Assembly: GCA_030427255.1 (NCBI GenBank)
Contig: JAUHWY010000005.1
Span: 23,776 to 87,775 of the forward strand
DNA from: Bacteroidia bacterium
Lineage (GTDB): Bacteria; Bacteroidota; Bacteroidia; CAIKAF01
DNA: 64,000 nt
Direction: 5' to 3'
The translations under genes and the position numbers were made by a program. Every line of letters starts with the position of its first letter. The stretch's first letter is position 1. Of the stretch, positions 4,797 through 60,530 are shown piece after piece. The notes under the pieces were generated by a model. The model made no database searches. It was not told the origin of the DNA and worked only from the letters and a program-made list of their open reading frames with translations.

Positions 4797-4859
4797 GGAT
4801 GGTACATTAAAGGTGTGATTGATTCAAATATAAAAAAAATACCACACGGAGCTTAAGGG

Positions 4860-5005
4860 CCAGGGATGGAGGCGGCACCCCGCAACAGGAGGGGGTTTGC
4901 TGTAAGGAGCTTAGGCGCGGCGGAGCGCAGCAAGCCCCGTCTAAGCCCGCCACAGCACCCCCTTCTGTTGTGGAGTATAGCCGAGAGCCCGTTTGGCCCC
5001 CAAAT
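4860..5005. repeat. GC-rich hairpin-forming intergenic element, copy A
   Basis: Nested inverted repeats caacaggagggggt/acccccttctgttg and gcttaggcg/cgtctaagc enclose the conserved loop GGCGGAGCGCAGCAAGCCCC. That loop is shared with copies at 35.2 kb and 42.7 kb. Confidence 0.7.
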
Positions 5006-14799: not shown

Positions 14800-14841
14800 A
14801 AAACATGTACACCTGTGGAATAGTAGGCATACATGTTTTTT
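14800..14841. terminator. bidirectional rho-independent terminator
   Basis: Stem aaaacatgta/tacatgtttt with T runs on both strands (ttttttc on plus, ttcttttttat on minus). Lies 56 bp downstream of the minus-strand 81-aa gene. Confidence 0.6.
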
Positions 14842-14896
14842 CTAGAACCCAAGTTAGAATGTAGAAAGGAAGATTTTGATTAATTGTAAAACAAAT

Positions 14897-15142: not shown

Positions 15143-15379
15143 GATTCCAATGTTTAATGTATTTTAGTTCTCTGATTTATTGGTGGCAGTCCTTCCTTTG
15201 TTTGCTCATCCCTACGTTTCCCCAAAATGAGTTAGGAAGGTCTGCCATTTTTTATGTCTTTTATTTGTACGCCTACTTTTGGCGTTGAGTTAGAAGGGAA
15301 CAATTGATGGTTATTGACGAACGATTAAGAAGCCTAGGCAAATAAAAGAACGGTCTTGGCAGAGAATGAATTGAATCGG

Positions 15380-15547
15380 TTAGTGCTGTAATTCGTCGAC
15401 GATTATTTGCACCTGAGCTTCCTCTCCGGAGCGTATGGCATCGTTAGAACGTTGCTCCAAGGCACGGTATTCGTCCGGAGACATGGTTGGCTTAGCTGCG
15501 ATCAGCAAGTTCAACATCAAGGCGACTAAAATCCAAAAGCTGTCCAT
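15380..15547 (-). CDS. small membrane/secreted peptide paralogue 1, 55 aa (MDSFWILVALMLNLLIAAKPTMSPDEYRALEQRSNDAIRSGEEAQVQIIVDELQH)
   Basis: Translated by hand (shorter than the ORF-track cut-off). N-terminal hydrophobic segment. C-terminal tail conserved with the two neighbouring paralogues. Confidence 0.6.
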   Translation of the reverse strand: MDSFWILVALMLNLLIAAKPTMSPDEYRALEQRSNDAIRSGEEAQVQIIVDELQH

Positions 15548-15570
15548 GGTATGGTATTTTTAAAAGTTGG

Positions 15571-15738
15571 TTAATGCTGTAATTCGTCTACAATGATTTG
15601 CACCTGGGCTTCCTCTCCGGAGCGTATGGCATCGTTAGAACGCTGTTGTAGCGAGCGATACTCGTCGGGAGACATGGTTGGCTTGGCTGCGATTAGCAAG
15701 TTCAACATCAAGGCTACTAGAATCCAAAAGCTGTCCAT
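15571..15738 (-). CDS. small membrane/secreted peptide paralogue 2, 55 aa (MDSFWILVALMLNLLIAAKPTMSPDEYRSLQQRSNDAIRSGEEAQVQIIVDELQH)
   Basis: Translated by hand. About 90% identical to paralogue 1, including its upstream CTTTTAAAA(A)TAATACC region. Confidence 0.6.
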   Translation of the reverse strand: MDSFWILVALMLNLLIAAKPTMSPDEYRSLQQRSNDAIRSGEEAQVQIIVDELQH

Positions 15739-15758
15739 GAGGTATTATTTTAAAAGGA

Positions 15759-15965
15759 TTAGTGTTGAAGTTCGTCTACAATAATTTCCAACGCAACGGC
15801 GTCTTTTGCAGCAATGGCATGAGAGGCCTCAATCCTAGTAGATTGGAGACTATCGTTTCCGGATGTGCTTTGGCTGCCCGCAAGTAAATTGGACACCAAT
15901 ACGATTAATAGCGTTAAGGTTTGCATTGCGATTTGTTGAATTATTATTGATAAATTCTTGAGCAA
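15759..15965 (-). CDS. small membrane/secreted peptide paralogue 3, 68 aa (possibly 55 aa from internal M at 15926)
   Basis: ORF track. Hydrophobic N-terminus. Diverged middle. C-terminal ...AVALEIIVDELQH shares the IIVDELQH tail with paralogues 1 and 2. Confidence 0.55.
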   Translation of the reverse strand: MLKNLSIIIQQIAMQTLTLLIVLVSNLLAGSQSTSGNDSLQSTRIEASHAIAAKDAVALEIIVDELQH

Positions 15966-16038
15966 AGTTGAACCAAACTCAAATCTGCCGCAAAACCACT
16001 TTTTAAAAATTTGACATTACGAGAAAAAGGCCCTAAAT

Positions 16039-20638: not shown

Positions 20639-21250
20639 TTACCAGCGCGCCGGCGAAATAAGCTGAAAAAACTCCTGCCTGGTGGCAGCTTGCTCAAACA
20701 CCCCGGTAAATGAGCTGGTGGTTGTAAAGGAGTGTTGTTTTTCCACACCCCGCATTTGCATGCATAAATGCCTAGCTTCAATAACCACGGCTACCCCTTG
20801 TGGATTCAAAGCATTTTGTAAGCAATCCCTAATTTGGGTGGTAAGTCGTTCTTGCACTTGCAATCTGCGGCTAAACGCATCCACCACGCGCGGAATTTTG
20901 CTAAGTCCGCAAATGGTACCTTGGGGAATGTAGGCAATATGGGCTTTACCAAAAAAGGGCAGCATGTGGTGCTCGCACATAGAAAACACTTCTATGTCGC
21001 GCACCAACACCATTTCGTTGTGGTCTTCTTGAAACAGGGCTTCCCTCAAAATCCCAGCCGGATCTTGTTGGTAGCCTTGGGTTAAAAATTGCATGGCTTT
21101 AGCCATACGCTCCGGGGTCTTTTGCAAACCCTCTCGTTGTACATCCTCGCCTAAAAGACCTATGGCCTCGGCATATAGCTTGGCCAAGGCTTGGGTCTTT
21201 TGGTCGGGATAGCGCTCTTCGCGCTCGTATGCATTGGGATTATTCCCCAT
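20639..21250 (-). CDS. folE: GTP cyclohydrolase I
   Basis: [18 protein letters not shown] zinc-site motif. Start placed at MGNNPNAY. The longer ORF to 21358 would overlap queD by 119 bp. Confidence 0.85.
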
Positions 21251-21662
21251 AATAAGTGACAGAATTGCGTTCGGTTTCGAACAGTTCAATTTTATGCAAG
21301 CGGCATGGACCCAAGTCCTGCACGGCAGGATCCAATATCTTCCAAATTTCCACCGCAAGCACCTCCGTAGAAGTCATTTTCCCCTCCAAAAAGGGCACAT
21401 CCAAGTTCAGGTTTTTGTGGTCCAACTTGTCGATTACCAGACTGCGAATGACCGTCGACAACTTTTTCAAATCCACAATAAAACCGGTATCGGCTTGAGG
21501 CTCACCCTTTACGGTGACCAGCAAATCGTAATTGTGTCCATGCCAGTTTTTATTGGCGCAAGGACCGAACACGGCGGCATTTTGCTCTTCCGACCAATTG
21601 GGGTTGAAGAGCTTATGCGCAGCATTGAAATGTTCTTTTCGAGTGAGGTATACCAAAGGCAT
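21240..21662 (-). CDS. queD: 6-carboxy-5,6,7,8-tetrahydropterin synthase / 6-pyruvoyl-tetrahydropterin synthase family
   Basis: 140 aa. FNAAHKL ... [11 protein letters not shown] motifs. Confidence 0.85.
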
Positions 21663-21689
21663 GGCCTAATTTTCTGCAAAGGTACGTTT

Positions 21690-22075
21690 TTTGGTATTTG
21701 GGCGCCATTTCCGGCTGTCGCTGCAAGTCCTCGTCAAAAGCCCTGTGCCGCATGGGGCTGCGGTAGCTCCCCCGAAGCATCGGGTCCGCTTCCTCGCTCC
21801 CTGCGGCACATGGGCTTTTGCCTCCGGGCTTTCCGCATCCATCCGGGGCGCGGAATCCCGCTCCGCCATAAAAACCCATTTACCCTTTGGGTTTCCAATG
21901 TTATTTTTGGAAGAACAAGCGGCAGGGACAGAACGGAAAGCCCACAGCAGCCGAGCTTAGGGAGGCAGGGCCACGGAGGCGACCTTGGGAGCCCCCGTAG
22001 GCACTAGCCTCCCTTAGCTCGGATGCGAGGACTTGCAGAGATGGCCCGCCCGGCCGCCCAAAACGATAAATCCAC
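21690..22075. repeat. GC-rich hairpin-forming intergenic element, copy B (two sub-elements)
   Basis: Sub-element 1 (gctgcaagtcctcg...ttcctcgct...) matches 34665-34800. Sub-element 2 has stem cgagcttagggaggc/gcctcccttagctcg and tail GAGGACTTGcAG...GCCCGcccGGCCGCC, the same architecture as 35200-35360. Confidence 0.65.
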
Positions 22076-22133: not shown

Positions 22134-23618
22134 ATGCAAGTGCGCTTTTTCTTTTTGGTTCTTCTTTTTCCTTTTTTGGCGGCTCAGGCTCAATCGGTGG
22201 GCGTAAATACGCAAAACCCGGACCCGTCGGCTGCTTTAGAAGTGCAGTCTACCCAGCAGGGCTTTTTGCCGCCGCGCATGACTTCAAGCCAACGCGACAA
22301 TATTTCGAATCCGGCCACAGGGCTCATGATTTATAATACCGACAACGGTTGCCTTAACTTGTTTAACGGCAACTTGTGGGAGCAGCTTTGTCCTACGTGT
22401 ATTGCGCCGGTGGTGCAAATTCAAAACGTTCCGGATACCTTGTGCGCCGGTCAAAACCTGAGCTTCAATTTGCCGTCTATTTCCGGGGTTAGCTACCATT
22501 GGAGCGGCCCCAACGGTTTTAGTTCCAATTTGCCCAACCCCACGGTTAGCAGCGTTAGCGCCCAAGACGCTGGTGCCTATGCTGTGTTTGCCGTTCAAAA
22601 CAACTGTACTTCTGCCGTGGTTACGCATAACTTAACCGTGCTGAACCAAGCCGATGCCAATTTTACAGTGAACCCAAGCACTCCTTCGGTGAATGTGGCG
22701 GCCGCCTTTACGGCCCAAGCCGGCATGGGCAGCTACGCCTGGACTTTTCAGAGCGGAACACCCGGATCGTCCATTCAGCAGAACCCTCAAGTTACCTGGT
22801 CTCAAGCGGGTACCTACAACGTGCAATTGATTGTAGATAACGGCAATTGCAGCGATACGGTGATTCAACAAGTTACGGTGGTGACTTGCCCTCCTCAGCC
22901 TCAGGGCCAAAGCGTTACCTTCAATTATACGGGTGGGGTTCAGTCCTTTACGGTTCCTGCTTGTGTCAATTATATTGATGTCGACGCTTCGGGTGCACAG
23001 GGCTTTGCAAACGGAAGTCCAAGTTTTGGCCGTGGTGGCCGCGTTCAAGCCAGGCTTACGGTTACGCCGGGAGAGGTTTTGTCCATCTACGTAGGAGGTC
23101 AAGGAACCTCCACCTCCGGAGGTTACAACGGTGGTGGAAATGTGGGATCCGGAGGTAATTACGGCGGTGGCGGCGGAGCTTCGGACATTCGGCGCAATGG
23201 TACCACCTTAAACGATAGAATTATTGTAGCCGGTGGCGGCGGTGGTACGGGTTCCAATTGCGGCACCAACTCTGCTCCGGGCGGTCATGGAGGTGGCTTA
23301 ACCGGACAAAGCGGTTGTTTGTACAGCTGCAGCAGCTGCCAGTATACCGGCGGTGGCGGGACACAATCATCCGGTGGAGTAGCCGGCCCTACCAGCCATA
23401 GCGCATGTGGAAACAACAGCAACGGCAGCTTTGGTCAAGGTGGCTCCAATACCGGAAACTCAGGCACCGGCGGCGGTGGCGGCTGGTATGGCGGAGGTTC
23501 AGGTTGTTATGAAGGTGCCGGAGGAGGTAGTTCTTACGTCACCAGCAATGGCTCAAGCAATATCACTCATACGCAAGGACATCGTCCGGGCCATGGTCAA
23601 ATCATTATCAGTTATTGA
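22134..23618 (+). CDS. secreted protein: conserved N-terminal module + PKD-like domain + C-terminal glycine-rich (ALK-like Gly_rich) domain
   Basis: 494 aa with signal peptide. N-terminal module ...ALEVQSTQQGFLPPRMTSSQRDNISNPATGLMIYNTD.GC. C-terminal FTVPACVNYIDVDASGAQG...IYVGGQG...IIVAGGGGG...GHGQIIISY. Confidence 0.75.
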   Translation: MQVRFFFLVLLFPFLAAQAQSVGVNTQNPDPSAALEVQSTQQGFLPPRMTSSQRDNISNPATGLMIYNTDNGCLNLFNGNLWEQLCPTCIAPVVQIQNVPDTLCAGQNLSFNLPSISGVSYHWSGPNGFSSNLPNPTVSSVSAQDAGAYAVFAVQNNCTSAVVTHNLTVLNQADANFTVNPSTPSVNVAAAFTAQAGMGSYAWTFQSGTPGSSIQQNPQVTWSQAGTYNVQLIVDNGNCSDTVIQQVTVVTCPPQPQGQSVTFNYTGGVQSFTVPACVNYIDVDASGAQGFANGSPSFGRGGRVQARLTVTPGEVLSIYVGGQGTSTSGGYNGGGNVGSGGNYGGGGGASDIRRNGTTLNDRIIVAGGGGGTGSNCGTNSAPGGHGGGLTGQSGCLYSCSSCQYTGGGGTQSSGGVAGPTSHSACGNNSNGSFGQGGSNTGNSGTGGGGGWYGGGSGCYEGAGGGSSYVTSNGSSNITHTQGHRPGHGQIIISY

Positions 23619-28837: not shown

Positions 28838-29010
28838 GACCCAAACCTGTGGTGCATCTGTGTCTATCTGTGCTAATCTATGACCACCTGTGGTACATCT
28901 GTGCGAATCTGTGACCATCTGTGTATATCTGTGTGTATCTGTGCGAATCCGTGGTGCATCCGTGGTGCATCCGTGGTGCATCCGTGGTGCATCTGTGGCG
29001 CACACGTGAC
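28838..29010. repeat. tandem/degenerate repeat tract (ATCTGTG-type heptamer variants; 4 x CCGTGGTGCAT)
   Basis: Directly visible: ...catctgtgcgaatctgtgaccatctgtg... followed by ccgtggtgcat x4. Confidence 0.85.
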
Positions 29011-29151: not shown

Positions 29152-29523
29152 ATGGAACTAAATGATTTAACCTACAAGATTATTGGATGTGCCTACAAGG
29201 TGCACTCCAAATTAGGCCCCGGTCTACTGGAGTCAACCTATGAAGTTTGCTTAGCGTATGAGCTTATAAAAGGTGGCTTGGTCGTAGAACGGCAAAAAAC
29301 GCTGCCGGTGGTCTATGACAACATTCAACTAGAAGCCGGATACCGGATCGATCTGTTGGTAGATCACACCGTAATTCTAGAGCTCAAATCTGTAGCCGAA
29401 ATTGCACCCATTCATCAAGCGCAATTAATGACCTACCTAAAACTATCCGGATTAAAGCTGGGGCTGTTGCTTAACTTTAATGTACAGGATATGAAAAGGG
29501 GTATAAAGCGGATAATCCTTTAA
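29152..29523 (+). CDS. GxxExxY family protein (PD-(D/E)XK-like)
   Basis: 123 aa. KIIGCAYKVHSKLGPGLLESTYEVCLAYEL carries the GxxExxY signature (G-L-L-E-S-T-Y). Confidence 0.8.
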   Translation: MELNDLTYKIIGCAYKVHSKLGPGLLESTYEVCLAYELIKGGLVVERQKTLPVVYDNIQLEAGYRIDLLVDHTVILELKSVAEIAPIHQAQLMTYLKLSGLKLGLLLNFNVQDMKRGIKRIIL

Positions 29524-29600
29524 CAATAATCTGTGCGAATCCGTGCAAATCTGTGGTGCACCTGTCGTGCACCCCTGCAAATCTGTGGTGAAAACCTAAG
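29521..29600. repeat. repeat tract downstream of the GxxExxY gene
   Basis: aatctgtgcgaatccgtgcaaatctgtggtgcacc repeats the atctgtgcgaatccgtg(gtgca) sequence found at 28937-28960 upstream of the gene. Confidence 0.8.
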
Positions 29601-34575: not shown

Positions 34576-34664
34576 GATTCGGACTGAAGCAGCTGAAAAA
34601 AATAGGCTCTAAATCCATCACTTCAAAAGAGAACCTCAAAAAGCTAAATAAAAAGGTTTTGGGC

Positions 34665-34800
34665 GTGCCCCTAAAGGGTCGGGCTATCCGCTGCAAGTCC
34701 TCGCTCGTTCCTCGCTGTGGGCTTTCCGCTGCTATCCCTCACGCGGAAATCTTCTTAAATAAGAAAGTTTGGCGCCCAAAAGGAGGTGGGGATTTCAAGA
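34665..34800. repeat. GC-rich intergenic element, sub-element 1 (copy C)
   Basis: gggctatccgctgcaagtcctcgctcgttcctcgctgtgggctttccgctgc is related to 21700-21850. Confidence 0.6.
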
Positions 34801-34869
34801 GAGGCGGGGAATCGAGAAGGAGACCCGAGATCTCCCATCTAAACGGATGACCCTTTTTCATTTATCATT

Positions 34870-35011
34870 CAGAGAGCGGGGCACCCCGTCTTTACCCCAT
34901 CATTGAGAGACGGGAGGCATCCCGTCTTTACCGCGTTATGGAGAGACGGGAGGTATCCCGTCTTTAACGCGTCATGGAGAGACGGGAGGCATCCCGTCTT
35001 TACCACGTTAT
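34870..35011. repeat. tandem array of about 3.5 x 36-bp units, each a hairpin AGACGGGA-GGCA-TCCCGTCT
   Basis: gagagacgggaggcatcccgtctttacc(g/a)cgttatg repeated three times, plus a degenerate first unit (cggggcaccccg). Confidence 0.85.
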
Positions 35012-35014
35012 CTA

Positions 35015-35200
35015 TCATTCATCATTCATCATCCATCATTCATCATTCATCATCCATCATTCATCATCCATCATTCATCATCCATCATTCATCATCCATC
35101 ATTCATCATCCATCATTCATCATCCATCATTCATCATCCATCATTCATCATCCATCATTCATCATCCATCATTCATCATTCACCATTTATCATTATCATT
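35015..35200. repeat. 14-bp minisatellite (CATCATTCATCATC)n, about 12 copies
   Basis: Period-14 repeat directly visible. Gives spurious ORFs encoding IIHHSSS repeats in two frames. Confidence 0.9.
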
Positions 35201-35360
35201 CACCTATTCTCCCTTCCGGCCCGGATGCTGTGGAAAGCCCGGAAAACCAAGCCTTAGGGCAGTGTGGGAAGCGGAGGCGGAGCGCAGCAAGCCCCCGCAA
35301 GCCCCACTGCCTTTAGGCTTGGTTTGAGGACTTGAAGCAAGCAGCCGGAATTGCCGGCCC
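35200..35360. repeat. GC-rich hairpin-forming intergenic element, copy C (archetype)
   Basis: ttccggcccggatgctgtggaaagcccggaaaaccaagccttagggcagtg[GGGAAGCGGAGGCGGAGCGCAGCAAGCCCCCGCAAGCCC]cactgcctttaggcttggtttgaggacttgaagcaagcagccggaattgccggcc. 18-bp stem with a conserved loop. Near-identical to the copy at 42665-42810. Confidence 0.8.
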
Positions 35361-42574: not shown

Positions 42575-42890
42575 ACAATGCTCATTCACCATTCATCATT
42601 TACCACTCATCATTCATCACTTTCCATTCATCATTCATCATTCACCATTTATCATTCATCATTCCGGCCCGGATGCTGTGAAAAGCCCGGAAAACCAAGC
42701 CTTAGGGCAGTGTGGGAAGCGGAGGCGGAGCGCAGCAAGCCCCCGCAAGCCCCACTGCCCTTAGGCTTGGTTTGAGGACTTGAAGCAAGCAGCCGGAAAT
42801 GCCGGCCAAAAACCATTCTTCACCATCCCTCCCTTCATCATTTATCATTCATCATTTATCATTCATCATTCACCATTCATTTTTCCCGCT
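42575..42890. repeat. composite repeat: CATCATT-type minisatellite fragments flanking GC-rich hairpin element copy D
   Basis: 42665-42810 is near-identical to 35200-35350 and has a perfect 18-bp stem (ccaagccttagggcagtg/cactgcccttaggcttgg). Flanked on both sides by tcatcattcaccatttatcattcatcatt-type repeats. Confidence 0.85.
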
Positions 42891-45817: not shown

Positions 45818-47104
45818 CTACCAAGAAATAATGACCTGCCCGTGTCCGGTTTGAAAGCCGGGGGTATTGGTTTGGTTGGTGCCGCTGTTGTAGGAACCGC
45901 CCCCACCACCACCGTAATAATAAGTGGTACCGCCGGCGCCACCACCTGAGTATCCTCCTCCGGCACCTGCCGCATGACCTGCGTTACCGCAGCAATTGGC
46001 ACCGCCGCCGCCACCGCCGCCATAGCCGCCATTTCCTCCATAGTTTGTTGCATTCTTCCCGCCCGGGTTTTGGACAATAGAAAGCCAGCCCTTACCACCT
46101 GCACTTCCTCCGAATCCGTCTTGGCCGTTTGACCCTCCAGGGGCATCATTGAACTGATCATGGCTACGTGAACCGCCGCCGGTATTGGTAGTAACTCCAT
46201 CTTTGCCATAATAATGTGGCGCTCCATTATTGGTTAGTGAAGAGGCTCCACCTCCTCCGGCTGCAATCAGCGGCTGTGCCGTTTGCCCCTGCACCCAAAC
46301 AAAGCTGCCGCCGCCGCCGCCGCCACCGCCATTGGCTGTGTTTCCGCTTGTAGCATCGTTGCCCTTTTGACCCACAATAATTTGCAAGACTTGGCCGCCC
46401 TGGACATTAAAGGTTCCCTGCATGCGGGCACCTTGGCCACCCAAATCTTGAGAAACCAAGCCAAAATTATCGCCTCCTTGTGCTCCACGGCAATCTATAG
46501 AAATGCTACTGACACAGGCAGGAACAGTCCAATTTTGGATACTCCCTGTGTAATTGAAGGTTTGACTTCCCGAGGGGCAATTGATTATCGTAAAGCTCAA
46601 GCTGGAGGAGTCACTACAGCCTTGGGAATCAGTTACCACTAGACTTACTTGATAGGTTCCGGTTTGGGTCCAAGTAACCGAAGGGTTGGCCGAAGAAGAG
46701 GATGCCGGCGTTCCCGAAGCAAAAGTCCAGGCATAGGAAGCCGCTCCGGGAACGGATTGAAAACTTACCGAACTATTGACACTGCCTTGACTAACTCCGG
46801 GAGTAATCGTGGGGTCTGGTGTGGTGTTGCAATTGCAGGCTACGGCTCTCCATCCTGTAGGGAAATAGGTTTCTTGGCACTCCGTGTCGGTATTGTAAAT
46901 TTGCAAGCCCCGAGTTGGGTTGGCAATGGCATTGCGCTGTGCACTGGTAAGCCGCGGTAAAAGCAGTCCTCCTTGTGTACTTCTAACTTCCAACATAGCA
47001 TCTGAACTGGGTTGTCCGGGCGTATCACTAATTAATACCCCTTGAGCAAACCCTTGGCTTGCAAACAGCAAAAGAGCAATCCCTAAAAATCTGTCAATCA
47101 ACAT
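45818..47104 (-). CDS. secreted protein: conserved N-terminal module + PKD-like domain + C-terminal glycine-rich (ALK-like Gly_rich) domain
   Basis: 428 aa. AQGVLISDTPGQPSSDAMLEVRSTQGGLLLPRLTSAQRNAIANPTRGLQIYN...AVACNC. ...WTVPACVSSISIDCRGAQGG...IIVGQKG...LIAAGGGG...GHGQVIISW. Confidence 0.75.
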   Translation of the reverse strand: MLIDRFLGIALLLFASQGFAQGVLISDTPGQPSSDAMLEVRSTQGGLLLPRLTSAQRNAIANPTRGLQIYNTDTECQETYFPTGWRAVACNCNTTPDPTITPGVSQGSVNSSVSFQSVPGAASYAWTFASGTPASSSSANPSVTWTQTGTYQVSLVVTDSQGCSDSSSLSFTIINCPSGSQTFNYTGSIQNWTVPACVSSISIDCRGAQGGDNFGLVSQDLGGQGARMQGTFNVQGGQVLQIIVGQKGNDATSGNTANGGGGGGGGSFVWVQGQTAQPLIAAGGGGASSLTNNGAPHYYGKDGVTTNTGGGSRSHDQFNDAPGGSNGQDGFGGSAGGKGWLSIVQNPGGKNATNYGGNGGYGGGGGGGANCCGNAGHAAGAGGGYSGGGAGGTTYYYGGGGGGSYNSGTNQTNTPGFQTGHGQVIISW

Positions 47105-47105
47105 A

Positions 47106-48443
47106 TTACCAGCTTATTATCACTTCTCCATTTCCCTGACGATTGCCAGGGCTTACTTGTCCGTTACTTACGCCTCCAATATAGGCTGAGCCGCCACCGC
47201 CGCCGCCGCCGTTACCTTCGGAACTTCCTCCGGCACCGCCGTACCAGCCGCCTCCGCCTCCGCCGCCATCGCCATAGGAGCTGTGGTTGCCACCGTTTCC
47301 TCCTTGACCAAAGGTGCCGGCTGTCCCAGGGTTTGTGGCCCCGGTGGCAGGTTGACCGCCGCCGCTATTACCTCCTGCACTTCCACCACCCCCGCAAAAT
47401 CCGGGAGTAGTCCAACAGTTATGGCTTTGGCCGGGTCTGCCGCCACCCAAACTCCAAGCAGCATTTCCGGGGGTTCCTCCACAACAAGATCCGGAATTAG
47501 CACCACCGGCAGTTCCCTGGCCTCCTCCGTGTCCGCCATCTCCTCCATAGGAGTTTACGTCGTTGTAGGTGTCTCCACCACCGCCGCCGCCGCCGCCGGC
47601 CACAATAACTCTATCGTTTAAGCTTTGTCCCCCTTGACGTACATCAGAAGCGCCGCCGCCGTTTCCGGAATTGGAAGTACCGTTCCCTCCACCATTCCAC
47701 CCGTTTTGACCACCCACATAAACATGGAGGGTTTCTCCCGGAGTTACCGACAGGTCACCAATGGAAGTCCCTCCCGGACCTCCGACACCAAAGTCCTGTC
47801 CTACTCCGTTTGCTCCCTGGGCACCTCGGGCCGTTATTTGTATAGAAGTAACGCAAGCAGGCACAACAAAGCTTTGGGCGGCACCCGTAAAGCTAAAGGT
47901 TTGACTACCCGAGGGAGGACAGGCACTGACAACCAAAGACTGGCTGCTTGAATCGCTGCAACCTTGGGCGTCAGTAACCACTAGATGCACTTGATACGTT
48001 CCTGCTTGAGCATAGTTTGCAGTTGCATTTTGGCCCGATCCGGTAGCAGGTGTCCCCCCTTGAAAAGTCCATTGGTAGTTTTGCGCTCCGGAGGTGGCCG
48101 CAAAGCTTACCGTACTATTGATGCTTGCCGGAGATGGACTTATAGTAAAAGAAGGGTTTGGATAACTTTGGCAATTGCACTTTACGGCTCTCCAACCACC
48201 GGGAAAATACGTATCGACACAAGAAGAACTAAGATTATAAATTGTAAGTCCGGCTGTTGGATTCACAATAGCATCGCGTTGGGTTTGCGTCAATCTGGGA
48301 AGTAGCAAGCCTCCGTTGGTGCTTCGTACTTCGAGCATGGCATCAGGATTCGGTTGCCCCGGAGTATCACTGATTAACACGCCTTGAGCTAAGCCTAGAG
48401 CATAAAAATTAAACGCTAAAATCAGACAAAATAAAGACTTCAT
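47106..48443 (-). CDS. secreted protein: conserved N-terminal module + PKD-like domain + C-terminal glycine-rich (ALK-like Gly_rich) domain
   Basis: Start placed at MKSLFCLILAFNFYALGLAQG. ...FVVPACVTSIQITARGAQG...VYVGGQNG...VIVAGGGGGGGG...GNGEVIISW. Abuts the 45818 gene with a 1-bp spacer. Confidence 0.75.
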   Translation of the reverse strand: MKSLFCLILAFNFYALGLAQGVLISDTPGQPNPDAMLEVRSTNGGLLLPRLTQTQRDAIVNPTAGLTIYNLSSSCVDTYFPGGWRAVKCNCQSYPNPSFTISPSPASINSTVSFAATSGAQNYQWTFQGGTPATGSGQNATANYAQAGTYQVHLVVTDAQGCSDSSSQSLVVSACPPSGSQTFSFTGAAQSFVVPACVTSIQITARGAQGANGVGQDFGVGGPGGTSIGDLSVTPGETLHVYVGGQNGWNGGGNGTSNSGNGGGASDVRQGGQSLNDRVIVAGGGGGGGGDTYNDVNSYGGDGGHGGGQGTAGGANSGSCCGGTPGNAAWSLGGGRPGQSHNCWTTPGFCGGGGSAGGNSGGGQPATGATNPGTAGTFGQGGNGGNHSSYGDGGGGGGGWYGGAGGSSEGNGGGGGGGSAYIGGVSNGQVSPGNRQGNGEVIISW

Positions 48444-48519: not shown

Positions 48520-48672
48520 CTTCCGCCCCGGATGGCAGCGATACCCCGGCGCAGCGGTTTGGGTTGCCCTTGCAAAGCTTGCCGCGGCCCAGAGGGACCC
48601 GGCAAGCAATGCTAGGGCCCCAAACCGGAAGCCGTGTAAAGCGAACAGCCGGAATTGGCGGCCAAAAACTTC
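48520..48672. repeat. GC-rich hairpin-forming intergenic element, diverged copy E
   Basis: cttccgccccggatggcagcg ... ccggtttggg/cccaaaccgg and cttgccg/cggcaag stems ... gaacagccggaattggcggccaaaaact. Same start and end architecture as copies C and D. Confidence 0.6.
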
Positions 48673-48697: not shown

Positions 48698-50203
48698 ATG
48701 CGGTTTCTACCTCTTCTTTTTGTTCTTCTTTTTTCATTTTCTGCATTACACGCTCAGGGTGTTTTAATTAGCGACACGCCGGGTCAGGCGGACCCCTCTG
48801 CCGGGCTGGAAGCGCGTTTTTCGCAAAAGGGATTTTTAATGCCCAGGCTCACCACCGTTCAACGCAATGCCATAGCCAATCCTGCTATTGGTCTACAAAT
48901 TGTGAATTTAACCACCGAATGTGTGGAGGTGTATTTTTCAACAGGATGGACTCCTGTAGCTTGCGCCTGCACGGCCCCTCCCTCGATTCCCAGCTCCATT
49001 CAAGTGCCTACCGCTTGCCCCGGAGATACTCAGGTGGTGTTTCGCGTCAATCCCGTACCCGGAGCCGCTTCGTATCAATGGACAACTCCTCAAGGCCTGC
49101 AAATAGTGGCGGGTCAGGGCAGCGATACCTTAGTGGTGTCGGTATCGGGTAGTGGAGCGACAGGGCAAGTGCAAGTAAGTGCTCAAAACGGTTGCGGGAG
49201 TTCCTCCCCCTTAGCGGTAGCCTTTGCTTTTCAAGGCCCCGGAGCAGGTTTCGGACCTTTATCCGGCGCGATTGGAAATCCTGTGAATTTTAACGCCACC
49301 AGCAATACGGCCATTAGCTATCAGTGGCAATTTCAGAGCGGCACCCCGGCCAATTCCAACCTAGCCGGCCCTAGCGTATTATGGAGCAATACCGGCAACT
49401 ACCAAGTAATTCTTCAAACTACCGACGCCAATGGTTGCAGCTCCATAGACACCCAAAGCGTGAGCATTACCAATTGCCCTCCGGGCAGCCAGACCTTTAG
49501 CTTTACCGGAGGTATACAAAGCTTTACGGTTCCCAATTGTGTGGGCAGCATTACCATTCAAGCATCCGGGGCACAAGGTGGCGCAAATCAAAATGGAGAC
49601 GCGGGAGGCTTAGGTGCCATACTACAAGGAGACTTCATAGTTTCCGGAGGAGAGGTGCTTCAGGTTTTGGTAGGTGGCAAAGGCCAAGATGGAATTAGTC
49701 AATCGTATTTCAGGTCCGGAGGCGGTGGCGGCGGATCCTTTGTTTGGAGGCAAAATGGAAATCAGCTGCTGATTGCGGCAGGAGGTGGAGGTGGAAGAGA
49801 CGTAGGAGGGTCTACCGATCAAATAGATGCAAGCTCAGGCACTACAGGTCAGCCCGGGGCCTTTCCTTCGGCATCGGCAGGAAATGGCGGCACTGGGGGC
49901 AGCAGCTTTAATGGAAATGATGGCGGCGGAGGCGCTGGCTGGAACAGCAATGGCACCGGTACCGGCCCCGGAATACGGCCGCTAAGTGGAGGCCAAGGCG
50001 GCAGCAACAACCGCAATGGCGGTTTTGGCGGTGGCGGGGGCGCTACCAATGCAGGAGGCGGAGGAGGAGGCTACAGCGGTGGCAGTTGTGGACAAAACAG
50101 CTCCTTAAGCGCAGGCGGCGGCGGCTCCTTTAACGGAGGAACCAACCAACAAAATACAGGTGGACAGCACAGCGGAGATGGCCAAATCACCATCAGCTGG
50201 TAA
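48698..50203 (+). CDS. secreted protein: conserved N-terminal module + PKD-like domains + C-terminal glycine-rich (ALK-like Gly_rich) domain
   Basis: 501 aa. AQGVLISDTPGQADPSAGLEARFSQKGFLMPRLTTVQRNAIANPAIGLQIVN. ...FTVPNCVGSITIQASGAQGG...VLVGGKG...LIAAGGGGG...GDGQITISW. Confidence 0.75.
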   Translation: MRFLPLLFVLLFSFSALHAQGVLISDTPGQADPSAGLEARFSQKGFLMPRLTTVQRNAIANPAIGLQIVNLTTECVEVYFSTGWTPVACACTAPPSIPSSIQVPTACPGDTQVVFRVNPVPGAASYQWTTPQGLQIVAGQGSDTLVVSVSGSGATGQVQVSAQNGCGSSSPLAVAFAFQGPGAGFGPLSGAIGNPVNFNATSNTAISYQWQFQSGTPANSNLAGPSVLWSNTGNYQVILQTTDANGCSSIDTQSVSITNCPPGSQTFSFTGGIQSFTVPNCVGSITIQASGAQGGANQNGDAGGLGAILQGDFIVSGGEVLQVLVGGKGQDGISQSYFRSGGGGGGSFVWRQNGNQLLIAAGGGGGRDVGGSTDQIDASSGTTGQPGAFPSASAGNGGTGGSSFNGNDGGGGAGWNSNGTGTGPGIRPLSGGQGGSNNRNGGFGGGGGATNAGGGGGGYSGGSCGQNSSLSAGGGGSFNGGTNQQNTGGQHSGDGQITISW

Positions 50204-52015: not shown

Positions 52016-53065
52016 ATGAAACATCTTTTTCGGTGGATTTTCCGCTTAATTCTTCTAGTGCTGCTTCTTTTTGCAGGCTTTCTAGGCTATTTGAGCATAA
52101 CCGACTACCGCCCCGAAGCCCGAGAGGCCGCAACCGTCCAAGGCCAAAGCGCCGAACGAACTTTTGCCACCGGCGACACCCTAAGTCTGCTCATTTGGAA
52201 TATTGGCTACGCAGGCCTGGGTGCAGAAATGGACTTTTTCTTTGATGGGGGGAGCCGAGTACGCCCCGAAAAAGAAGAAAATAGCCGATACCTCCAGGGA
52301 ATCACAACCTTTTTAGCCCAACAGAGCTCCACCGACTTTGTGCTCCTCCAAGAAGTGGATAGGAATTCTAAACGCAGCTACCATACCGACCAAGTGGTGC
52401 CCATTAGTCAGGCTTTGCCCAAGCACAATTACAGCTTTGCCCTTAATTACAAAACAGCCTTTGTGCCTCAACCGCTTACCGAGCCCTACGGAAAAGTGGT
52501 AGGCGGCTTGCTCAGTTTGTCGCGCACCCAACCCGTTCAAAGCACACGCTACCGACTCAAAGCCGACGCCGATTGGCCAATGGGACTTTTTATGCTCGAT
52601 CGATGCTTCTTAACTCAGCGGTTCCCCATGGACTCCAGCAAAGAACTTGTGGTGGTTAACTTACACCTTTCCGCTTATGACGACGGCGGCGTAAAGCAAA
52701 ACCAAATGGACAGCCTAGCCGCCTTTCTGCACAAAGAAGAGGAACAAGGAAATGTGGTGCTTTTGGGTGGCGATTGGAACCAAATTGCACCCGACAAACC
52801 CCTACCTAAACCAATGGAAAATGCGCCGGTGACGGTACAACAGGCGCCCAAAGAATTCCCCAACGCCAACTGGCAGTGGGCTGTCCCCGAGCAAAGCACC
52901 AACCGCTGGCTGCTTGGGCCCTATCAGCAAGGAACAACCCAAGAAGCCTGCATCGATTATTTTTTGGTTTCACCGGGAGTTCGGGTGCTGCAAACCAAAC
53001 GCTTGAACTTGAACTTTGCCTATTCAGACCATGAACCGGTTTGGATGCAACTTATTCTTCCTTAG
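52016..53065 (+). CDS. endonuclease/exonuclease/phosphatase (EEP) family protein, membrane-anchored
   Basis: N-terminal TM helix. LLIWNIGYAG ... LLQEVD ... NLHLSAYDDGG ... SDHEPV motifs. Confidence 0.75.
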   Translation: MKHLFRWIFRLILLVLLLFAGFLGYLSITDYRPEAREAATVQGQSAERTFATGDTLSLLIWNIGYAGLGAEMDFFFDGGSRVRPEKEENSRYLQGITTFLAQQSSTDFVLLQEVDRNSKRSYHTDQVVPISQALPKHNYSFALNYKTAFVPQPLTEPYGKVVGGLLSLSRTQPVQSTRYRLKADADWPMGLFMLDRCFLTQRFPMDSSKELVVVNLHLSAYDDGGVKQNQMDSLAAFLHKEEEQGNVVLLGGDWNQIAPDKPLPKPMENAPVTVQQAPKEFPNANWQWAVPEQSTNRWLLGPYQQGTTQEACIDYFLVSPGVRVLQTKRLNLNFAYSDHEPVWMQLILP

Positions 53066-53074
53066 GTTTTTTTG

Positions 53075-53250
53075 GGTGCCGGACGGGCTGCCCGCTTCTA
53101 GGCTGTTTGCAAAAAAACGTCGTGCTAAGGCTTGGTCAGGGCTTCCTCTGTCAGCCTGCCCAAGCCAAGCACGTCTGTTTTTTTGCTGCACAGCGCTAAC
53201 CGCTCGCATCCCTGGCACGGGATTACGTAAAGCTCCTTTTACCCTGCGTA
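53075..53250. repeat. GC-rich hairpin-forming intergenic element, diverged copy F
   Basis: aaacgtcgtgctaaggcttgg ... cccaagccaagcacgtctgttt inverted repeat carrying the CTAAGGCTTGG motif. Confidence 0.5.
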
Positions 53251-53252
53251 GT

Positions 53253-56135
53253 TTACCCTTCTAAAGCTGCATATTCCTCAATAGGTAAGCAACTGCAAAT
53301 GAGGTTTCTGTCTCCGTAGGCATCGTCAACCCTGCTTACCGGAGGCCAAAACTTATTGTCCTCCACAAAACGAAGCGGATACGCTGCTTTTCTGCGGCTG
53401 TAAGGACGTGACCAATCTTCTTCGAGCAAAACCGCAGCGGTGTGAGGCGCATTCTTCACCACATTATTCCCCGGATCGCTCTGACCCAATTCAATTTCCC
53501 GAATTTCTTCCCGAATTTGAATCAAGGCGTCGCAAAAACGACCCATCTCTTCCATAGATTCGCTTTCGGTAGGCTCTATCATTAAGGTTCCTGCCACGGG
53601 AAAACTTACCGTTGGAGCATGGAAACCGTAGTCCATAAGCCGCTTGGCAATGTCTACTACCTCAATTCCCAGTTTTTTAAAGGCACGCATATCCAAAATA
53701 AACTCATGAGCAACCCTACCTTTATTGTTGGTATACAACACAGGGAAATGAGGTTCCAAACGAGCCTTCATAAAGTTGGCGTTCAGAATTGCGGTTTCGG
53801 TAGAACGCTTTAAACCATCCGGGCCCAACAAACGTATGTAGGCATAAGAAATAATCAGAATAAGCGGACTTCCCCATGGGGCTGCAGACACCGATGATAT
53901 TCCTTGTTGCCCGCCGGTTTCCTGATCGCCATGAACCGGCAAGAAGGGTGCCAAATGGGCTTTTACCCCAATGGGCCCCATGCCCGGACCGCCGCCTCCA
54001 TGTGGAATGGCGAAGGTTTTATGCAAATTCAAGTGGCACACATCCGCTCCAATGGCCGCCGGAGAAGTGAGGCCAACTTGTGCATTCATATTTGCTCCGT
54101 CCATGTAAACCTGTCCACCGAATTCATGTGCAATGGAGGTAATTTCAATTACCCGCTCCTCAAAAACTCCGTGGGTAGAAGGGTAGGTAATCATTAAGGC
54201 AGACAGGGCATCCTTATGTTTTTCGGCCTTGGCTCTTAGGTCGTCTACATCAATATTTCCTTGCTCATCGCAGGCAACCACAACCACTTTCATGCCGGCC
54301 ATCACCGCAGAAGCGGGGTTAGTTCCATGCGCCGAAGATGGAATAAGCGCAACATTCCGCTGAGGTTCTCCATTGGCCTGATGAAAGGCTCTGATGACCA
54401 TTAAACCGGTGTATTCGCCTTGTGCACCGCTATTGGGCATAAGAGAAACCGAGTCAAAACCGGTAATCTCGGCTAAATCACGGGCCAATTTGTCAATTAA
54501 AATACGGTACCCCGCCGAATGATGCTCAGGAGCAAAAGGATGAATGGCCTGAAATTCCGGCCAGCTCAGAGGAGCCAATTGGGTGGCAGCGTTCAACTTC
54601 ATGGTGCATGAACCCAAAGGAATCATGCTAAAGTTCAAGGCAATATCCTTTCTTTCCAATTGTTTTATATAACGCATCAGTTCGGTCTCCGACCGGTGGG
54701 TATGGAACACCGGATGCGTAAGGTATGAGGATTGTCTTTGCGCAAATTTGGGGATTCTAATTTGCGTGGCGGCAATGCTTTGCTCGGTAAAAACAGGAGC
54801 AGACTGCCTGGCGGCATCGGCAAAAGCACGAATTAGCTCATTTAAACTGTCTAAGCTGGTGGTTTCGTCAAAAGAAAGACCAATAGATCCGTCTTTATGT
54901 AAATACACATTGATGTCGCGTGCCCGAGCTTTCGCCAAAAACTCTTCCGTATGGTTGTTGGGTAGCACTTTAAGGGTATCAAAGAAATCACCTTCGGGGA
55001 GCGTATAACCCAGCTGCTCCAAAGCTGCGGCAGCCAAACAGGTTTTTTTATGCACGTCCATGGCTATTTCCTTCAACCCATCCGGACCATGGTAGACTGC
55101 GTACATAGAAGCCATAATGGCCAGCAATGCTTGGGCGGTGCAAATATTGGAGGTAGCTTTATCTCGGCGGATGTGCTGTTCTCTGGTTTGCAAAGCCATC
55201 CGAAGGGCCGGTTTATGATCGCGGTCTAAGGTTATACCAATAATTCTGCCGGGGACCTGTCTGGAAAAGTCCTTACGTGTAGCAAAAAATGCGGCATGTG
55301 GTCCACCAAAACCCATGGGCACACCAAAGCGCTGGGTACTGCCTACCACTACATCTGCGCCCCACTCACCGGGAGGAGTTAGAAGTGTAAGGGCCAAAAG
55401 GTCTGTGGCTACCGCTACTTTTAATTCCGCGGCATGGCATTGACTTACAAAGTCGGCCAAATGTCCAACGGTTCCGTTTTTGTCGGGGTATTGCAAGAGC
55501 ACACCAAAGAACCCCTCCTCTTTGGGGTCAAAGTTTGCAGGATTTCCTAAAACCAATTCAATACCTAAAGGCTCAGCTCGGGTAATAAGAACATCCAAGG
55601 TTTGTGCAAACACCGACTCTGCAACAAAGAAACGGTTACACTCTTCTTTAACTTGTTGCCGGCTCCTGAGGGCATGAAGCATGGTCATAGCTTCGGCAGC
55701 AGCCGTAGCCTCGTCGAGCAGCGAAGCGTTCGCCAAGTCCATACCGGTGAGTTCCATCACCATGGTTTGGAAGTTTAGAATGGCTTCCATGCGGCCCTGA
55801 GCTATTTCGGCCTGATAGGGCGTGTAGGCCGTATACCAGCCCGGGTTTTCAAATATATTGCGCAATATGGGAGTGGGCGTAAAGGTCCCATAATAGCCTT
55901 GTCCCATAAAATTGTGGGCCAATGTGTTTTTTGAGGCCAAATCCCAAATGTGTCTCAAAAAATCTTGTTCCGTCATGGCACGATCCAAGTCCAAAGGTTT
56001 AGGCAAGCGAATTGAGGACGGAACTACCTCATTTATAAGCTGCTCCATTGAATCTACACCAATGTACTCAAGCATGTTTTGTACTTCGGTCCGGTCGGGA
56101 CCCAGGTGTCGCTCAGCAAAATTTACGTGATGCAT
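53253..56135 (-). CDS. gcvP: glycine dehydrogenase (decarboxylating), single-chain P-protein
   Basis: About 960 aa. Start placed at MHHVNFAERHLGP. Two PLP-dependent halves. SCTMKLNA motif. Confidence 0.95.
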   Translation of the reverse strand: MHHVNFAERHLGPDRTEVQNMLEYIGVDSMEQLINEVVPSSIRLPKPLDLDRAMTEQDFLRHIWDLASKNTLAHNFMGQGYYGTFTPTPILRNIFENPGWYTAYTPYQAEIAQGRMEAILNFQTMVMELTGMDLANASLLDEATAAAEAMTMLHALRSRQQVKEECNRFFVAESVFAQTLDVLITRAEPLGIELVLGNPANFDPKEEGFFGVLLQYPDKNGTVGHLADFVSQCHAAELKVAVATDLLALTLLTPPGEWGADVVVGSTQRFGVPMGFGGPHAAFFATRKDFSRQVPGRIIGITLDRDHKPALRMALQTREQHIRRDKATSNICTAQALLAIMASMYAVYHGPDGLKEIAMDVHKKTCLAAAALEQLGYTLPEGDFFDTLKVLPNNHTEEFLAKARARDINVYLHKDGSIGLSFDETTSLDSLNELIRAFADAARQSAPVFTEQSIAATQIRIPKFAQRQSSYLTHPVFHTHRSETELMRYIKQLERKDIALNFSMIPLGSCTMKLNAATQLAPLSWPEFQAIHPFAPEHHSAGYRILIDKLARDLAEITGFDSVSLMPNSGAQGEYTGLMVIRAFHQANGEPQRNVALIPSSAHGTNPASAVMAGMKVVVVACDEQGNIDVDDLRAKAEKHKDALSALMITYPSTHGVFEERVIEITSIAHEFGGQVYMDGANMNAQVGLTSPAAIGADVCHLNLHKTFAIPHGGGGPGMGPIGVKAHLAPFLPVHGDQETGGQQGISSVSAAPWGSPLILIISYAYIRLLGPDGLKRSTETAILNANFMKARLEPHFPVLYTNNKGRVAHEFILDMRAFKKLGIEVVDIAKRLMDYGFHAPTVSFPVAGTLMIEPTESESMEEMGRFCDALIQIREEIREIELGQSDPGNNVVKNAPHTAAVLLEEDWSRPYSRRKAAYPLRFVEDNKFWPPVSRVDDAYGDRNLICSCLPIEEYAALEG

Positions 56136-59545: not shown

Positions 59546-60381
59546 TGCAACAAGAAGGCTTTTTTAAAACACCCGACGGAACCTCTTTATATTGGAACTC
59601 CGAAGGTCCCGAAAACCCAAGATTTGTGCTTTGGATGGTGCATGGCATGGGAGAACACTCGGGCCGGTACCAAAACCTTAGAAAGGCATTTATCAGCAGG
59701 GGTGGCCTTTGCGTTGGATTTGACCTACGCGGGCATGGCAAGTCCTCCGGAAAAAGAGGCCATGCCTTAAGTCTGGATCAATTGTGTGGCGACATTCAAG
59801 CGCTTTATGAGCACAAACAAAAAGACTTTGGCGGACTGCCGCTGCTGGGCTTTGGCCACAGCTTAGGAGGACAATTAATCCTTCACTGGCAGCTGAATCA
59901 TGGTGGCGCACTTAACGCCATTATGGTTTCTGCTCCCTACTTGGCTTTAGCCTTTGAACCTCCGGCATGGAAAGTAGCTCTGGGTAAGTGGGCCGCCCGT
60001 GTTTGGCCCTCCTTTAGCCAAGCCACCGGTTTGGAAACTGCCGCGCTTTGTAAAGACCAGAAAGTGGTAGAGGCTTACAAAAGAGACCCTTTGGTGCACG
60101 ACAAAATCTCGGCGTCCATGTTTCTTAGCATTCACTTGGGCGGTGCTTCCCTATTGGAAAAAGCCTCATCTGTGCAGCTGCCCCTACTTTTGGGCCATGG
60201 AACTGCCGACAGGATTACCTCGGAAGCTGCAAGTCGAGACTTTGCAGCCCGTTGCAAAGCAGCAGAGTATTGGACCATGGAAGGTGGCTTTCATGAGCTA
60301 CACCACGAACCGGAGCAGCAAATTTGGTTTGACCGACTGCTTGTATTTACAGAGAATCAATTGGGAAACCCGGCCCACTGA
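59545..60381 (+). CDS. alpha/beta hydrolase (lysophospholipase/monoacylglycerol lipase-like)
   Basis: HGMGEHSGRY ... GHSLGG nucleophile elbow. Confidence 0.75.
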   Translation: MQQEGFFKTPDGTSLYWNSEGPENPRFVLWMVHGMGEHSGRYQNLRKAFISRGGLCVGFDLRGHGKSSGKRGHALSLDQLCGDIQALYEHKQKDFGGLPLLGFGHSLGGQLILHWQLNHGGALNAIMVSAPYLALAFEPPAWKVALGKWAARVWPSFSQATGLETAALCKDQKVVEAYKRDPLVHDKISASMFLSIHLGGASLLEKASSVQLPLLLGHGTADRITSEAASRDFAARCKAAEYWTMEGGFHELHHEPEQQIWFDRLLVFTENQLGNPAH

Positions 60382-60384
60382 CCG

Positions 60385-60530
60385 GTACGGAAAGCCCCCG
60401 GAAAACAAATCCATTGGCGGCAGGAGTTTGGGCGTGGCGCGCAGCAAACGCCCCAAAGGACTATGCCGCCAAAGGATTTGGTGACGGGGCTTGAAGGGAG
60501 GGCAGGTTTTTTCGGCCTTCCATAATTTTT
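60385..60530. repeat. GC-rich intergenic element, diverged copy G
   Basis: ggaaagcccccggaaaacaaa ... gcgcagcaaacgcccc parallels gaaagcccggaaaaccaa ... gcgcagcaagcccc of copies C and D. Confidence 0.45.

Follow-up and report, generated by a model that had tools for sequence, protein, structure and literature searches.

GC-rich hairpin repeats in a Bacteroidia contig as divergent members of the Flavo-1 family

A stretch of 64,000 nt from the genome of a Bacteroidia bacterium (contig JAUHWY010000005.1, positions 23,776 to 87,775; hereafter the window) contains nine copies of a GC-rich hairpin element, six on the plus strand and three on the minus strand, each folding end to end over about 90-160 nt. 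We find it well supported that these nine elements are divergent, GC-rich and long-stemmed members of Flavo-1 (RF01705), a multi-copy structured repeat of Bacteroidota (Weinberg et al. 2010, Genome Biol 11:R31), despite their sub-threshold scores in Rfam. An earlier note on this DNA, based on the letters and a list of open reading frames (ORFs) alone, had reported at least seven copies at about one per 9 kb and had named a match to a described family as an outcome that would remove their novelty. Every string quoted there is found where it was placed and all seven of its regions hold the family, but two of the regions are double, which brings the density to one copy per 7 kb. The match to a described family exists: the family has been known since 2010, and the elements are not a new kind.

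Assignment to Flavo-1 and distribution of the family

At gathering thresholds, Rfam returned no match over the window. The threshold for RF01705 is 42 bits, which is a curation cut-off and not a biological boundary, and the best window copies reached 33.9 and 27.2 bits, the other copies being unreported. Flavo-1 came to light only through the E-value mode of the search and through a search of related loci, and the Rfam scan of the window has no other family at comparable scores. A Flavobacteriaceae relative to which the shared motifs led (L113:783-925) passes the cut-off narrowly, with 42.3 bits. The RF01705 model spans the basal 76 positions only. Our own covariance model built from 66 cores (R1) gives full-length matches to five window copies with 44.8-58.5 bits (E 6e-13 to 8e-18), two of the five being outside its training set. 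R1 finds at least 93 copies in 82 loci, nearly all of them labelled Bacteroidota. A second model (R2), restricted to the basal core and trained without window sequences, over-penalises the long insert; R2 and searches with filters off handle the insert of about 100 nt badly (8-15 bits for the long copies), and R2 is useful for the short copy only. The basal helices P1-P4, the blocks ccGAUuGaAGcGGAAa / UguAgCGgAaAGCgg and the covariation of the two arms are all present in the window copies, and the seed alignment of Weinberg et al. shows the same conserved blocks. We file the elements as Flavo-1 because the cut-off is one of curation and every structural feature tested is found in them.

The hairpins themselves stand out clearly from shuffled sequence. 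Each claimed copy folds as a single hairpin over its whole length of about 150 nt at -66 to -88 kcal/mol (z -3.8 to -7.0, from 200 shuffles per copy, 0/200 as stable). The 17-mer of the loop occurs in the window three times exactly and once with three mismatches, with 0.32 occurrences expected, the 3' end motif has four matches against 0.10 expected, and the 5' end motif has 18 against 6 expected at three mismatches, three of them near-exact. Given these fold scores and motif counts, the hairpins are genuine and did not arise by chance.

The family is also not confined to the window, a restriction that the earlier note had named as evidence against its reading. In addition to the relatives found by R1, a metagenome scan with the apical 20-mer yielded three more copies, all in one JGI sample and from the same population, which have the same loop and entirely different yet complementary stems; the copy in L131 is orthologous to archetype 1, the focal element of the earlier note. 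We also scanned 185,579 species genomes for the pattern GGAAAGCCC...GAGGACTTG, written GGAAAGCCCN{70,100}GAGGACTTG. About two thirds of the pattern matches listed are true relatives and the rest are chance matches in coding DNA of other phyla; the source genome itself is absent among the matches listed. The relatives among them come from Flavobacterium, other Flavobacteriales, Bacteroidales, Cytophagales, Chitinophagales, Sphingobacteriales and a few metagenome-assembled genomes (MAGs) of Spirochaetota. The host of the window, which is uncultured, belongs to the same phylum: a type IX secretion sorting domain and DUF4270 are encoded in the window, and its NusA is closest (82%) to proteins from Bacteroidia and Flavobacteriales MAGs, in which GldB and GldC are among the neighbouring genes.

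Some copies are found under labels from other phyla. Among the Spirochaetota MAGs, L043 holds three Flavo-1-like copies (36-60 bits), L040 one (41 bits, partial) and L064 one (27 bits). High-scoring copies also occur on contigs of MAGs labelled Proteobacteria, namely L025, L050 and L077 ('Candidatus Competibacteraceae') and L117 ('Variovorax paradoxus'); these four contigs are probably mis-binned Bacteroidota DNA. L025, L050 and L077 share other repeats or short stretches with the window as well.

Architecture, covariation and persistence

Each hairpin is composed of three modules, which are a basal stack of helices (P0-P4), a middle stem that is free in sequence and always complementary, and an apical mini-hairpin. 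The foot consists of the outer helix P0 with a bulge of 3-5 nt (AAUU) on the 3' arm. The earlier note had taken the ends to be a terminal repeat TTCCGGC/GCCGGAA; the actual pairing is CCGGC/GCCGG and CCGG/CCGG around the AAUU bulge. Next upward are P1 with four base pairs, an A opposite a G, P2 with two pairs, a 3x3 purine loop (GNA/GNA), P3 with two pairs, a second 3x3 purine loop (GGA/GAA), and P4 (AAG-C-CC/GG-A-CUU) with a conserved C.A mismatch. Above P4 lies the long free-sequence stem, often with a U.U mismatch within CUUAG/CUUAG. This is the 18-bp stem of the earlier note, which is present but holds the conserved U.U mismatch and, in copy 1, a G.U pair. The tip carries the apical mini-hairpin GCGACC...GGAAGC or its variant GGCGGAGCGCAGCAAGCC. 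The conserved loop described earlier is indeed shared, but its 39 nt are themselves structured and contain this variant, in which the two-pair apical stem changes from CC/GG to GC/GC. In the form GCGAC(N3-8)G[GA]AGC, the apical module is present in 33 of 65 non-redundant copies, with 0.1 expected. The basal purine-purine loops read alike 5' to 3' on both arms (GAU.G.AG.GGAAAG / CUUG.A..GGA.AGC), and therefore the folded form has a two-fold pseudo-symmetry. Conservation ends exactly at the foot of the hairpin, where a short T-run lies on the 5' side and an A-run on the 3' side, and together with P0/P1 these runs form inverted ends like those of a miniature inverted-repeat transposable element (MITE).

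The earlier note had claimed that pairing is preserved through compensatory change, and the alignments agree with this. In an alignment of the basal helices (A1), 85.6% of cells are paired, compared to 65.2% in shuffles, and changes on both sides of a pair affect 360 cells compared to 127; when the partner was slid by one column, pairing fell to 42-49%. At single pairs, all four Watson-Crick types occur (for example GC 21, AU 15, CG 13, UA 10). An independent alignment containing no window sequence (A2) gave the same result, with P1-P3 strong. This covariation supports the earlier contrast between a structured RNA or REP/MITE-like palindrome (REP, repetitive extragenic palindrome) on one side and random GC-rich spacer on the other. 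In the variable stems of 65 copies, read on the strand of the motifs, interior G.U pairs outnumber A.C (50 against 8) and A.G outnumber C.U (28 against 7), a pattern indicating that one strand carries the constraint.

Copies at the same locus in different genomes show the same upkeep of the fold. L122 and L123, whose rimP-nusA-infB operons are 80% identical, carry elements at the same two sites. At the first site, the identity of the two elements reaches 85%, which exceeds that of the flanking coding DNA; an apical region of 45 nt is perfectly conserved, and two base pairs have changed in a compensatory way. At the second site, the identity is 75% and 7-9 base pairs are compensatory, and neither site has a broken base pair. 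Archetype 1 shares 95% of its positions between the window and L131, compared to 88% for the flanking genes, and in this close strain both copies of the locus are in place. A site downstream of infB is filled in L122 and L123 and empty in the window and in L124 and L125, these genomes being only about 80% identical. A length difference of 99 nt between L124 and L125, considered as an insertion, turned out to be a run of N.

Amplification within a genome is also apparent. The two archetypes of the window (35214-35360 and 42662-42808) are identical at 143 of 147 positions (97%; 95% over 159 nt), in line with the identity above 95% given in the earlier note, and in one Flavobacteriales MAG there are 14 copies or more, with a mean identity of 88% and unrelated flanks. 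A short-read contig of the same organism as the window (Logan L001) breaks at both archetypes.

The position of the copies relative to genes follows no evident rule. In tandem gene contexts, 12 copies are on the strand of the genes and 21 on the opposite strand; 17 lie between convergent genes and 14 of 64 between divergent genes (background 19% of all spacers), which is a near-background mix. Many copies sit within a few nucleotides of the flanking genes, and a stop codon often comes immediately before them. Of 68 copies, four are preceded by the Bacteroidota -7 motif TAnnTTTG, a frequency not above that of controls. The copies do not resemble intrinsic terminators: T5+ follows within 25 nt in 7 of the 68, and A-runs are more common there (16 of 68). 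A transcriptome study of F. psychrophilum (PMC9723704) found Flavo-1 matches in sense and antisense orientation as well as in untranscribed DNA. A Flavobacterium copy had no match in plasmid and phage collections, nor archetype 1 in the plasmids, and the 30 pattern matches in IMG/VR are all chance as judged by R1. In the literature we found no description of a Flavobacterium MITE or REP specific to the element.

The copies in the window and neighbouring repeats

Two of the regions in the earlier note, 21690-22075 and 34665-35360, hold two copies each, placed head-to-head: 21697-21855(-) with 21919-22063(+), and 34657-34750(-) with 35214-35360(+). A search of both strands showed that the GC-rich blocks 21700-21870, 34665-34750 and 53075-53224 belong to the same family on the minus strand, and they look differently built because of this orientation. 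When reverse-complemented, they have the 5' end TTCCGYGCC..GGGAUG..GGAAAGCCC and the 3' end GAGGACUUGCAG..CAGCCGGAAAUGGCGCCC.

The long-form copy at 21697..21855 (-) has the highest R1 score (58.5 bits, E 8e-18, full length), with motif matches and fold in agreement, and its 5' end faces the copy at 21919..22063 (+), 63 nt away. The latter, copy B, is also of the long form; it has the canonical apical module GGCGACCTTGGGAGCC, scores 44.8 bits (R1, E 6e-13; fold z -3.8) and sits 70 nt upstream of a gene for a PKD/glycine-rich protein. The copy at 34657..34750 (-) is a short form of about 90 nt without the long stem, in which a small CCCUUUAGGG hairpin takes the place of the 3' bulge. It scores 33.9 bits against RF01705 (E 0.0022, 34673-34752), 51.4 bits with R1 and 39.5 bits with R2 (E 1e-9), is 86% identical to L082:579-669 in a Flavobacteriales MAG, and is present at the orthologous locus in L131. 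The distance to rimP, which follows downstream on the same strand, is about 120 nt. Regulation of rimP in cis by this copy was considered and rejected, as its close relative in L082 stands beside unrelated genes and L122-L125 have no such copy upstream of rimP. Archetype 1 (35214..35360, +), of the long form, stands head-to-head with the short copy at a distance of 463 nt (R1 55.0 bits, E 1e-16; -81.7 kcal/mol, z -5.8), and its orthologue in L131 is the one compared above. Archetype 2 (42662..42813, +; R1 50.8 bits, not in the training set; fold z -6.7) is located inside a heptamer tract between the terminator of an aldehyde dehydrogenase gene and a DivIC-like gene.

The four most divergent copies (4857, 48521, 53068 and 60372) keep the helices in a reading made by eye, the exceptions being P2 of copy A, with one G.G, and P3 of the 60372 copy, with an A.G. 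Copy A (4857..5004, +) is a divergent Flavo-1-like element upstream of a superoxide dismutase gene that neither the Rfam model nor R1 or R2 detects. Its architecture was aligned by eye, with P0 GGGCC/GGCCC, P1 GGG/CCC, P3 GC/GC and P4 AC-C-CC/GG-A-GU, in which the C.A mismatch of the family is kept; it folds at -88.2 kcal/mol (z -6.96), the loop 17-mer is exact and the apical loop is identical to that of the archetypes. The copy at 48521..48668 (+), between divergently transcribed genes for PKD proteins, has a divergent core (GAUACCCC / GUGUAAAGCG) with P0-P4 all intact. RF01705 aligns to it over the full model (1-76) with 27.2 bits (48521-48659) and an insert of 87 nt at the hairpin tip, and the fold (z -5.05) and end motifs agree; the R2 match (15.4 bits, E 0.03) covers the 3' part only (48580-48672), with the 5' block misplaced, and lends weak support. 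At 53068..53222 (-), between convergent genes and just downstream of gcvP, the copy has the GGUUAGC form of P4 (UAG/CUA), and P0 GUGCC/GGCAC, P1 GGG/CCC, P2 UG/CA and P3 GC/GC can be read from its sequence. Its model matches are weak (R1 11.4 bits, E 0.5; R2 11.6 bits; fold z -4.97), and the GGUUA form occurs in classical seed sequences of the Flavo-1 alignment of Weinberg et al. The copy at 60372..60517 (+; fold z -5.4) belongs to a 'GGGACCGGYACGGAAAGCCC' subfamily and has P1 CUG/CAG where a relative has GGG/CCC. It is 76.7% identical to L075:5768-5899 (blastn E 5e-18), and its subfamily includes L075:4626-4787 and L025:1531-1688, whose R1 scores are 47-48 bits. The final 10 nt of a hydrolase gene (59545-60381), with its stop codon, lie within this copy, so that the earlier description of the elements as all intergenic does not extend to it.

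ORFs of 77-257 codons cross the GC-rich repeats at 21234-22007, 34903-35327, 53031-53264 and 60143-60484, and none has a match in Pfam; they are probably spurious, and an annotation pipeline could call them genes. The window also encodes four secreted paralogues with PKD and glycine-rich (ALK/LTK GRD-like) domains (22134-23618, 45818-47104, 47106-48443 and 48698-50203). A Flavo-1 copy adjoins three of them, and also a related PKD-domain protein in L123 (14471-15841); the two copies that precede the genes at 22134 and 48698 may go back to an old duplication of a gene together with its spacer. In L122 (8806-8955) and L123 (8805-8944), orthologous copies lie about 150 nt upstream of a gene for a small RRM-domain RNA-binding protein on the same strand, followed by rimP. 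This adjacency may be a coincidence or a lead to a binding partner.

Several other repeats accompany the hairpins. Heptamer arrays (TCATTCA/TCATCCA, 14-nt unit) stand beside both archetypes at 35010-35205, 42577-42660 and 42826-42890, with about 13 units at the first. The orthologous locus in L131 has both Flavo-1 copies and an array of only 3-4 heptamers; the array therefore expanded in the genome of the window, separately from the hairpin element. Between the head-to-head copies, at 34880-35011, is a 36-nt tandem repeat of small-hairpin units (GACGGGAGGCATCCCGTC), which forms a much longer array at 80-90% identity in L075 (1731-2402; Flavobacteriales MAG M30B58). A 26-nt tandem repeat (CCTGACGCTTCGGTCAGGATTAGAAA) at 14390-14510 has three perfect copies with a small hairpin in each, and is 90% identical to L025:6510-6718, on a contig of a MAG labelled Competibacteraceae. 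A 2-kb stretch without long ORFs (13986-16038) holds about 2.2 tandem copies of a 191-nt unit (86% identity, 15362-15790). Between cysS and infB, a small ORF for a PD-(D/E)XK nuclease (PF13366, E 1e-44) is enclosed by arrays of 10-11-nt repeats (ATCTGTG.../ATCCGTGGTGC), the ORF and arrays occupying 28856-29008, 29152-29523 and 29529-29577; the whole looks like a discrete inserted unit.

Interpretation and comparison with known repeat systems

The interpretation that we favour, with roughly even confidence, is that the element is a dispersed repeat of REP/REPIN or ERIC type acting as a folded single strand. The mechanism that we infer would have one particular strand fold, as RNA or as single-stranded DNA, and a protein recognise the folded strand at the conserved loops. 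The element would multiply within the genome by an insertional process, and a copy would then persist at its locus under selection for the fold, either tolerated or used by the host. The earlier note had left the choice between an RNA and a REP/MITE-like element undecided, and the data lean towards the dispersed repeat without settling the matter. A more ambitious and tentative version holds that Flavo-1 could be no sRNA (small RNA) at all and instead an ancient, phylum-wide, self-amplifying hairpin replicator with three modules and pseudo-symmetric purine loops, which a conserved Bacteroidota enzyme or host factor would recognise in folded form and whose copies would be kept for a long time by selection on the fold. 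If true, this would be a REPIN-like partnership between host and element in Bacteroidota, of which, to our knowledge, there is no known case.

Several results weigh against a dispersed repeat that multiplies by insertion. The orientation of the copies relative to local GC skew (47:37) gives no signal and thus no support for a replication-coupled mechanism on single-stranded DNA, although this test is weak. No transposase was found among about 40 window ORFs scanned with Pfam, and the clustering of 166 ORFs flanking copies revealed neither a transposase nor a recurrent protein family. The RAYT proteins (TnpA_REP) of subclass 2.6 in Bacteroidetes are flanked by 'atypical' repeats (Quentin et al. 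2018), but on present data they were rejected as the cognate system, as the table in that study holds no GGAAAG-bearing sequence. A pair of empty and filled sites at the strain level was not found, L131 being the one close strain compared, and no target-site duplication was seen by eye at the window copies or the 14 copies of one MAG, whose ends are not sharply defined and were inspected without a systematic test. The G.U excess in the variable stems is partly due to the way the folds are scored. A core conserved across the phylum and apparent selection at orthologous loci would also be unusual for selfish MITEs, and an RNA useful to the host would fit them equally well. The same core, together with the compensatory evolution of orthologues and with neither a target duplication seen nor an enzyme found, argues against a purely selfish MITE.

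Flavo-1 is listed in Rfam as 'Gene; sRNA' and is among the most abundant families under that small RNA (sRNA) label, and the copies could accordingly be genes for small trans-acting non-coding RNAs with their own promoters, acting through the conserved loops and the variable stem. The strong covariation and strand-specific tolerance of G.U and G.A are typical of functional RNA, the symmetric purine-rich loops and apical mini-hairpin resemble tertiary or protein-binding motifs of RNA, and both the compensatory evolution of orthologous copies and their random orientation to neighbours would be expected of independent genes. We nevertheless consider this unlikely, since promoter motifs (4/68) and T-runs (7/68) are scarce, conservation ends at the hairpin foot, many copies are wedged between genes or, as at 60372, over a stop codon at a density of one per 7 kb, and many matches in the published transcriptome lie outside transcribed regions. 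Quite unlikely, in our judgement, are cis-acting structures of untranslated regions that stabilise mRNA or serve as processing sites or terminators when co-transcribed. Some REP and ERIC copies do act in these ways, and the tight intergenic placement, often right after a stop codon, the barrier that so stable a hairpin would pose to 3' exonucleases, and the place of the short copy in what is probably the 5' leader of rimP-nusA-infB, with which it shares its strand, all agree with such a role. Against it, the copies have no orientation bias (12 same, 21 opposite) though the G.U/G.A pattern is on one strand only, divergent promoter spacers are as frequent as in the background (14/64 compared to 19%), an A-run and not a U-run follows the hairpin on the motif strand, and the relative of the copy upstream of rimP has unrelated neighbours in L082.

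BIME/REP sites serve IHF and gyrase, and Flavo-1 might similarly be a duplex-DNA binding site or a cruciform site for a nucleoid or topology protein, with its symmetry derived from a dimeric DNA-binding protein. A function independent of orientation and transcription would fit the results on context, signals and GC skew, and the blocks are alike on both arms; but the two-fold symmetry exists in the extruded hairpin only, the conserved blocks being direct repeats and not palindromes in the linear duplex, and the conserved mismatches (purine-purine, U.U, C.A) and the preference of G.U over A.C would make extrusion costly and point to a single strand, which leaves this explanation improbable. The chance occurrence of GC-rich palindromes or low-complexity spacer without common origin could be argued from the copies at 4857, 48521, 53068 and 60372, which are too divergent for a significant model score, but its probability is close to nil: it is ruled out by the fold scores (z -3.8 to -7), the motif counts, the R1 matches (E 1e-13 to 1e-18) and the homologues across the phylum. 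Weighing these together, we conclude that the element is probably neither an sRNA gene with its own promoter nor a cis-regulator tied to a neighbouring gene. These are less likely than the dispersed repeat because the strand-specific covarying fold, the indifference to gene orientation, the lack of promoter and terminator signals and the near-identical bursts occur together.

The hairpins of the window should thus be annotated as Flavo-1-like repeats, and such repeats break short-read assemblies. The three modules, the missing link to gene orientation, promoters and terminators, the compensatory upkeep and the bursts imply that the 'sRNA' label may be wrong. The question of function is made more testable, not answered, and a cognate protein, should there be one, would mark a new host-repeat system in Bacteroidota.

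Compared with known systems, the elements resemble REP/REPIN-RAYT repeats in being dispersed intergenic hairpins of high copy number, with near-identical families within genomes and long persistence at loci, in the expected recognition as a folded single strand, and in the two inverted doublets of the window. They differ in lacking the 5' GT[AG]G foot (TTCCGG, TTCCGCG and TTTGCG are found instead) and in measuring 90-160 nt where the REP hairpin has 20-40 nt, Flavo-1 being four to six times longer. The Flavo-1 core is conserved phylum-wide and not genus-wide, no RAYT gene is seen near the copies, and the repeats of subclass 2.6 are other sequences. With ERIC/IRU, Correia (NEMIS) and other MITEs, the elements share the imperfect palindrome of 100-170 bp, inverted ends, intergenic placement in either orientation and the breaking of short-read assemblies, and ERIC copies fold in RNA when co-transcribed. 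The stems of Flavo-1, in contrast, are nearly all changed between copies and yet paired, unpaired loops are conserved, no target-site duplication was detected, and the distribution is far wider than that of any single MITE family; we know of no parent insertion sequence. The attC sites of integrons likewise depend on structure over sequence, with one folding strand, unpaired or extrahelical positions conserved near the foot and a variable tip. The window copies have no GTTRRRY core sites and form no cassette array, being scattered among housekeeping genes on both strands; attC core sites are absent from the sequences, and no integron integrase is among the window ORFs scanned.

The closest likeness is to Flavo-1 itself. 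The window copies differ from the catalogued family in being GC-rich, in having extra stems of about 60-75 nt and in that none reaches the curated threshold, and the Rfam model lacks P0 with its AAUU bulge, the U.U module of the middle stem and the apical GCGACC...GGAAGC module. They share its basal helices, the blocks GAU.G.AG.GGAAA ... UUG.A..GGA.AGC, its phylum, its multi-copy and intergenic occurrence on either strand and the variable insert at the hairpin tip, and the Rfam model aligns end to end with two of them. Beyond the catalogue entry, the copies add a three-module architecture, GC-rich long-stem variants below the threshold and evidence from the behaviour of the element that its 'sRNA' label may be mistaken.

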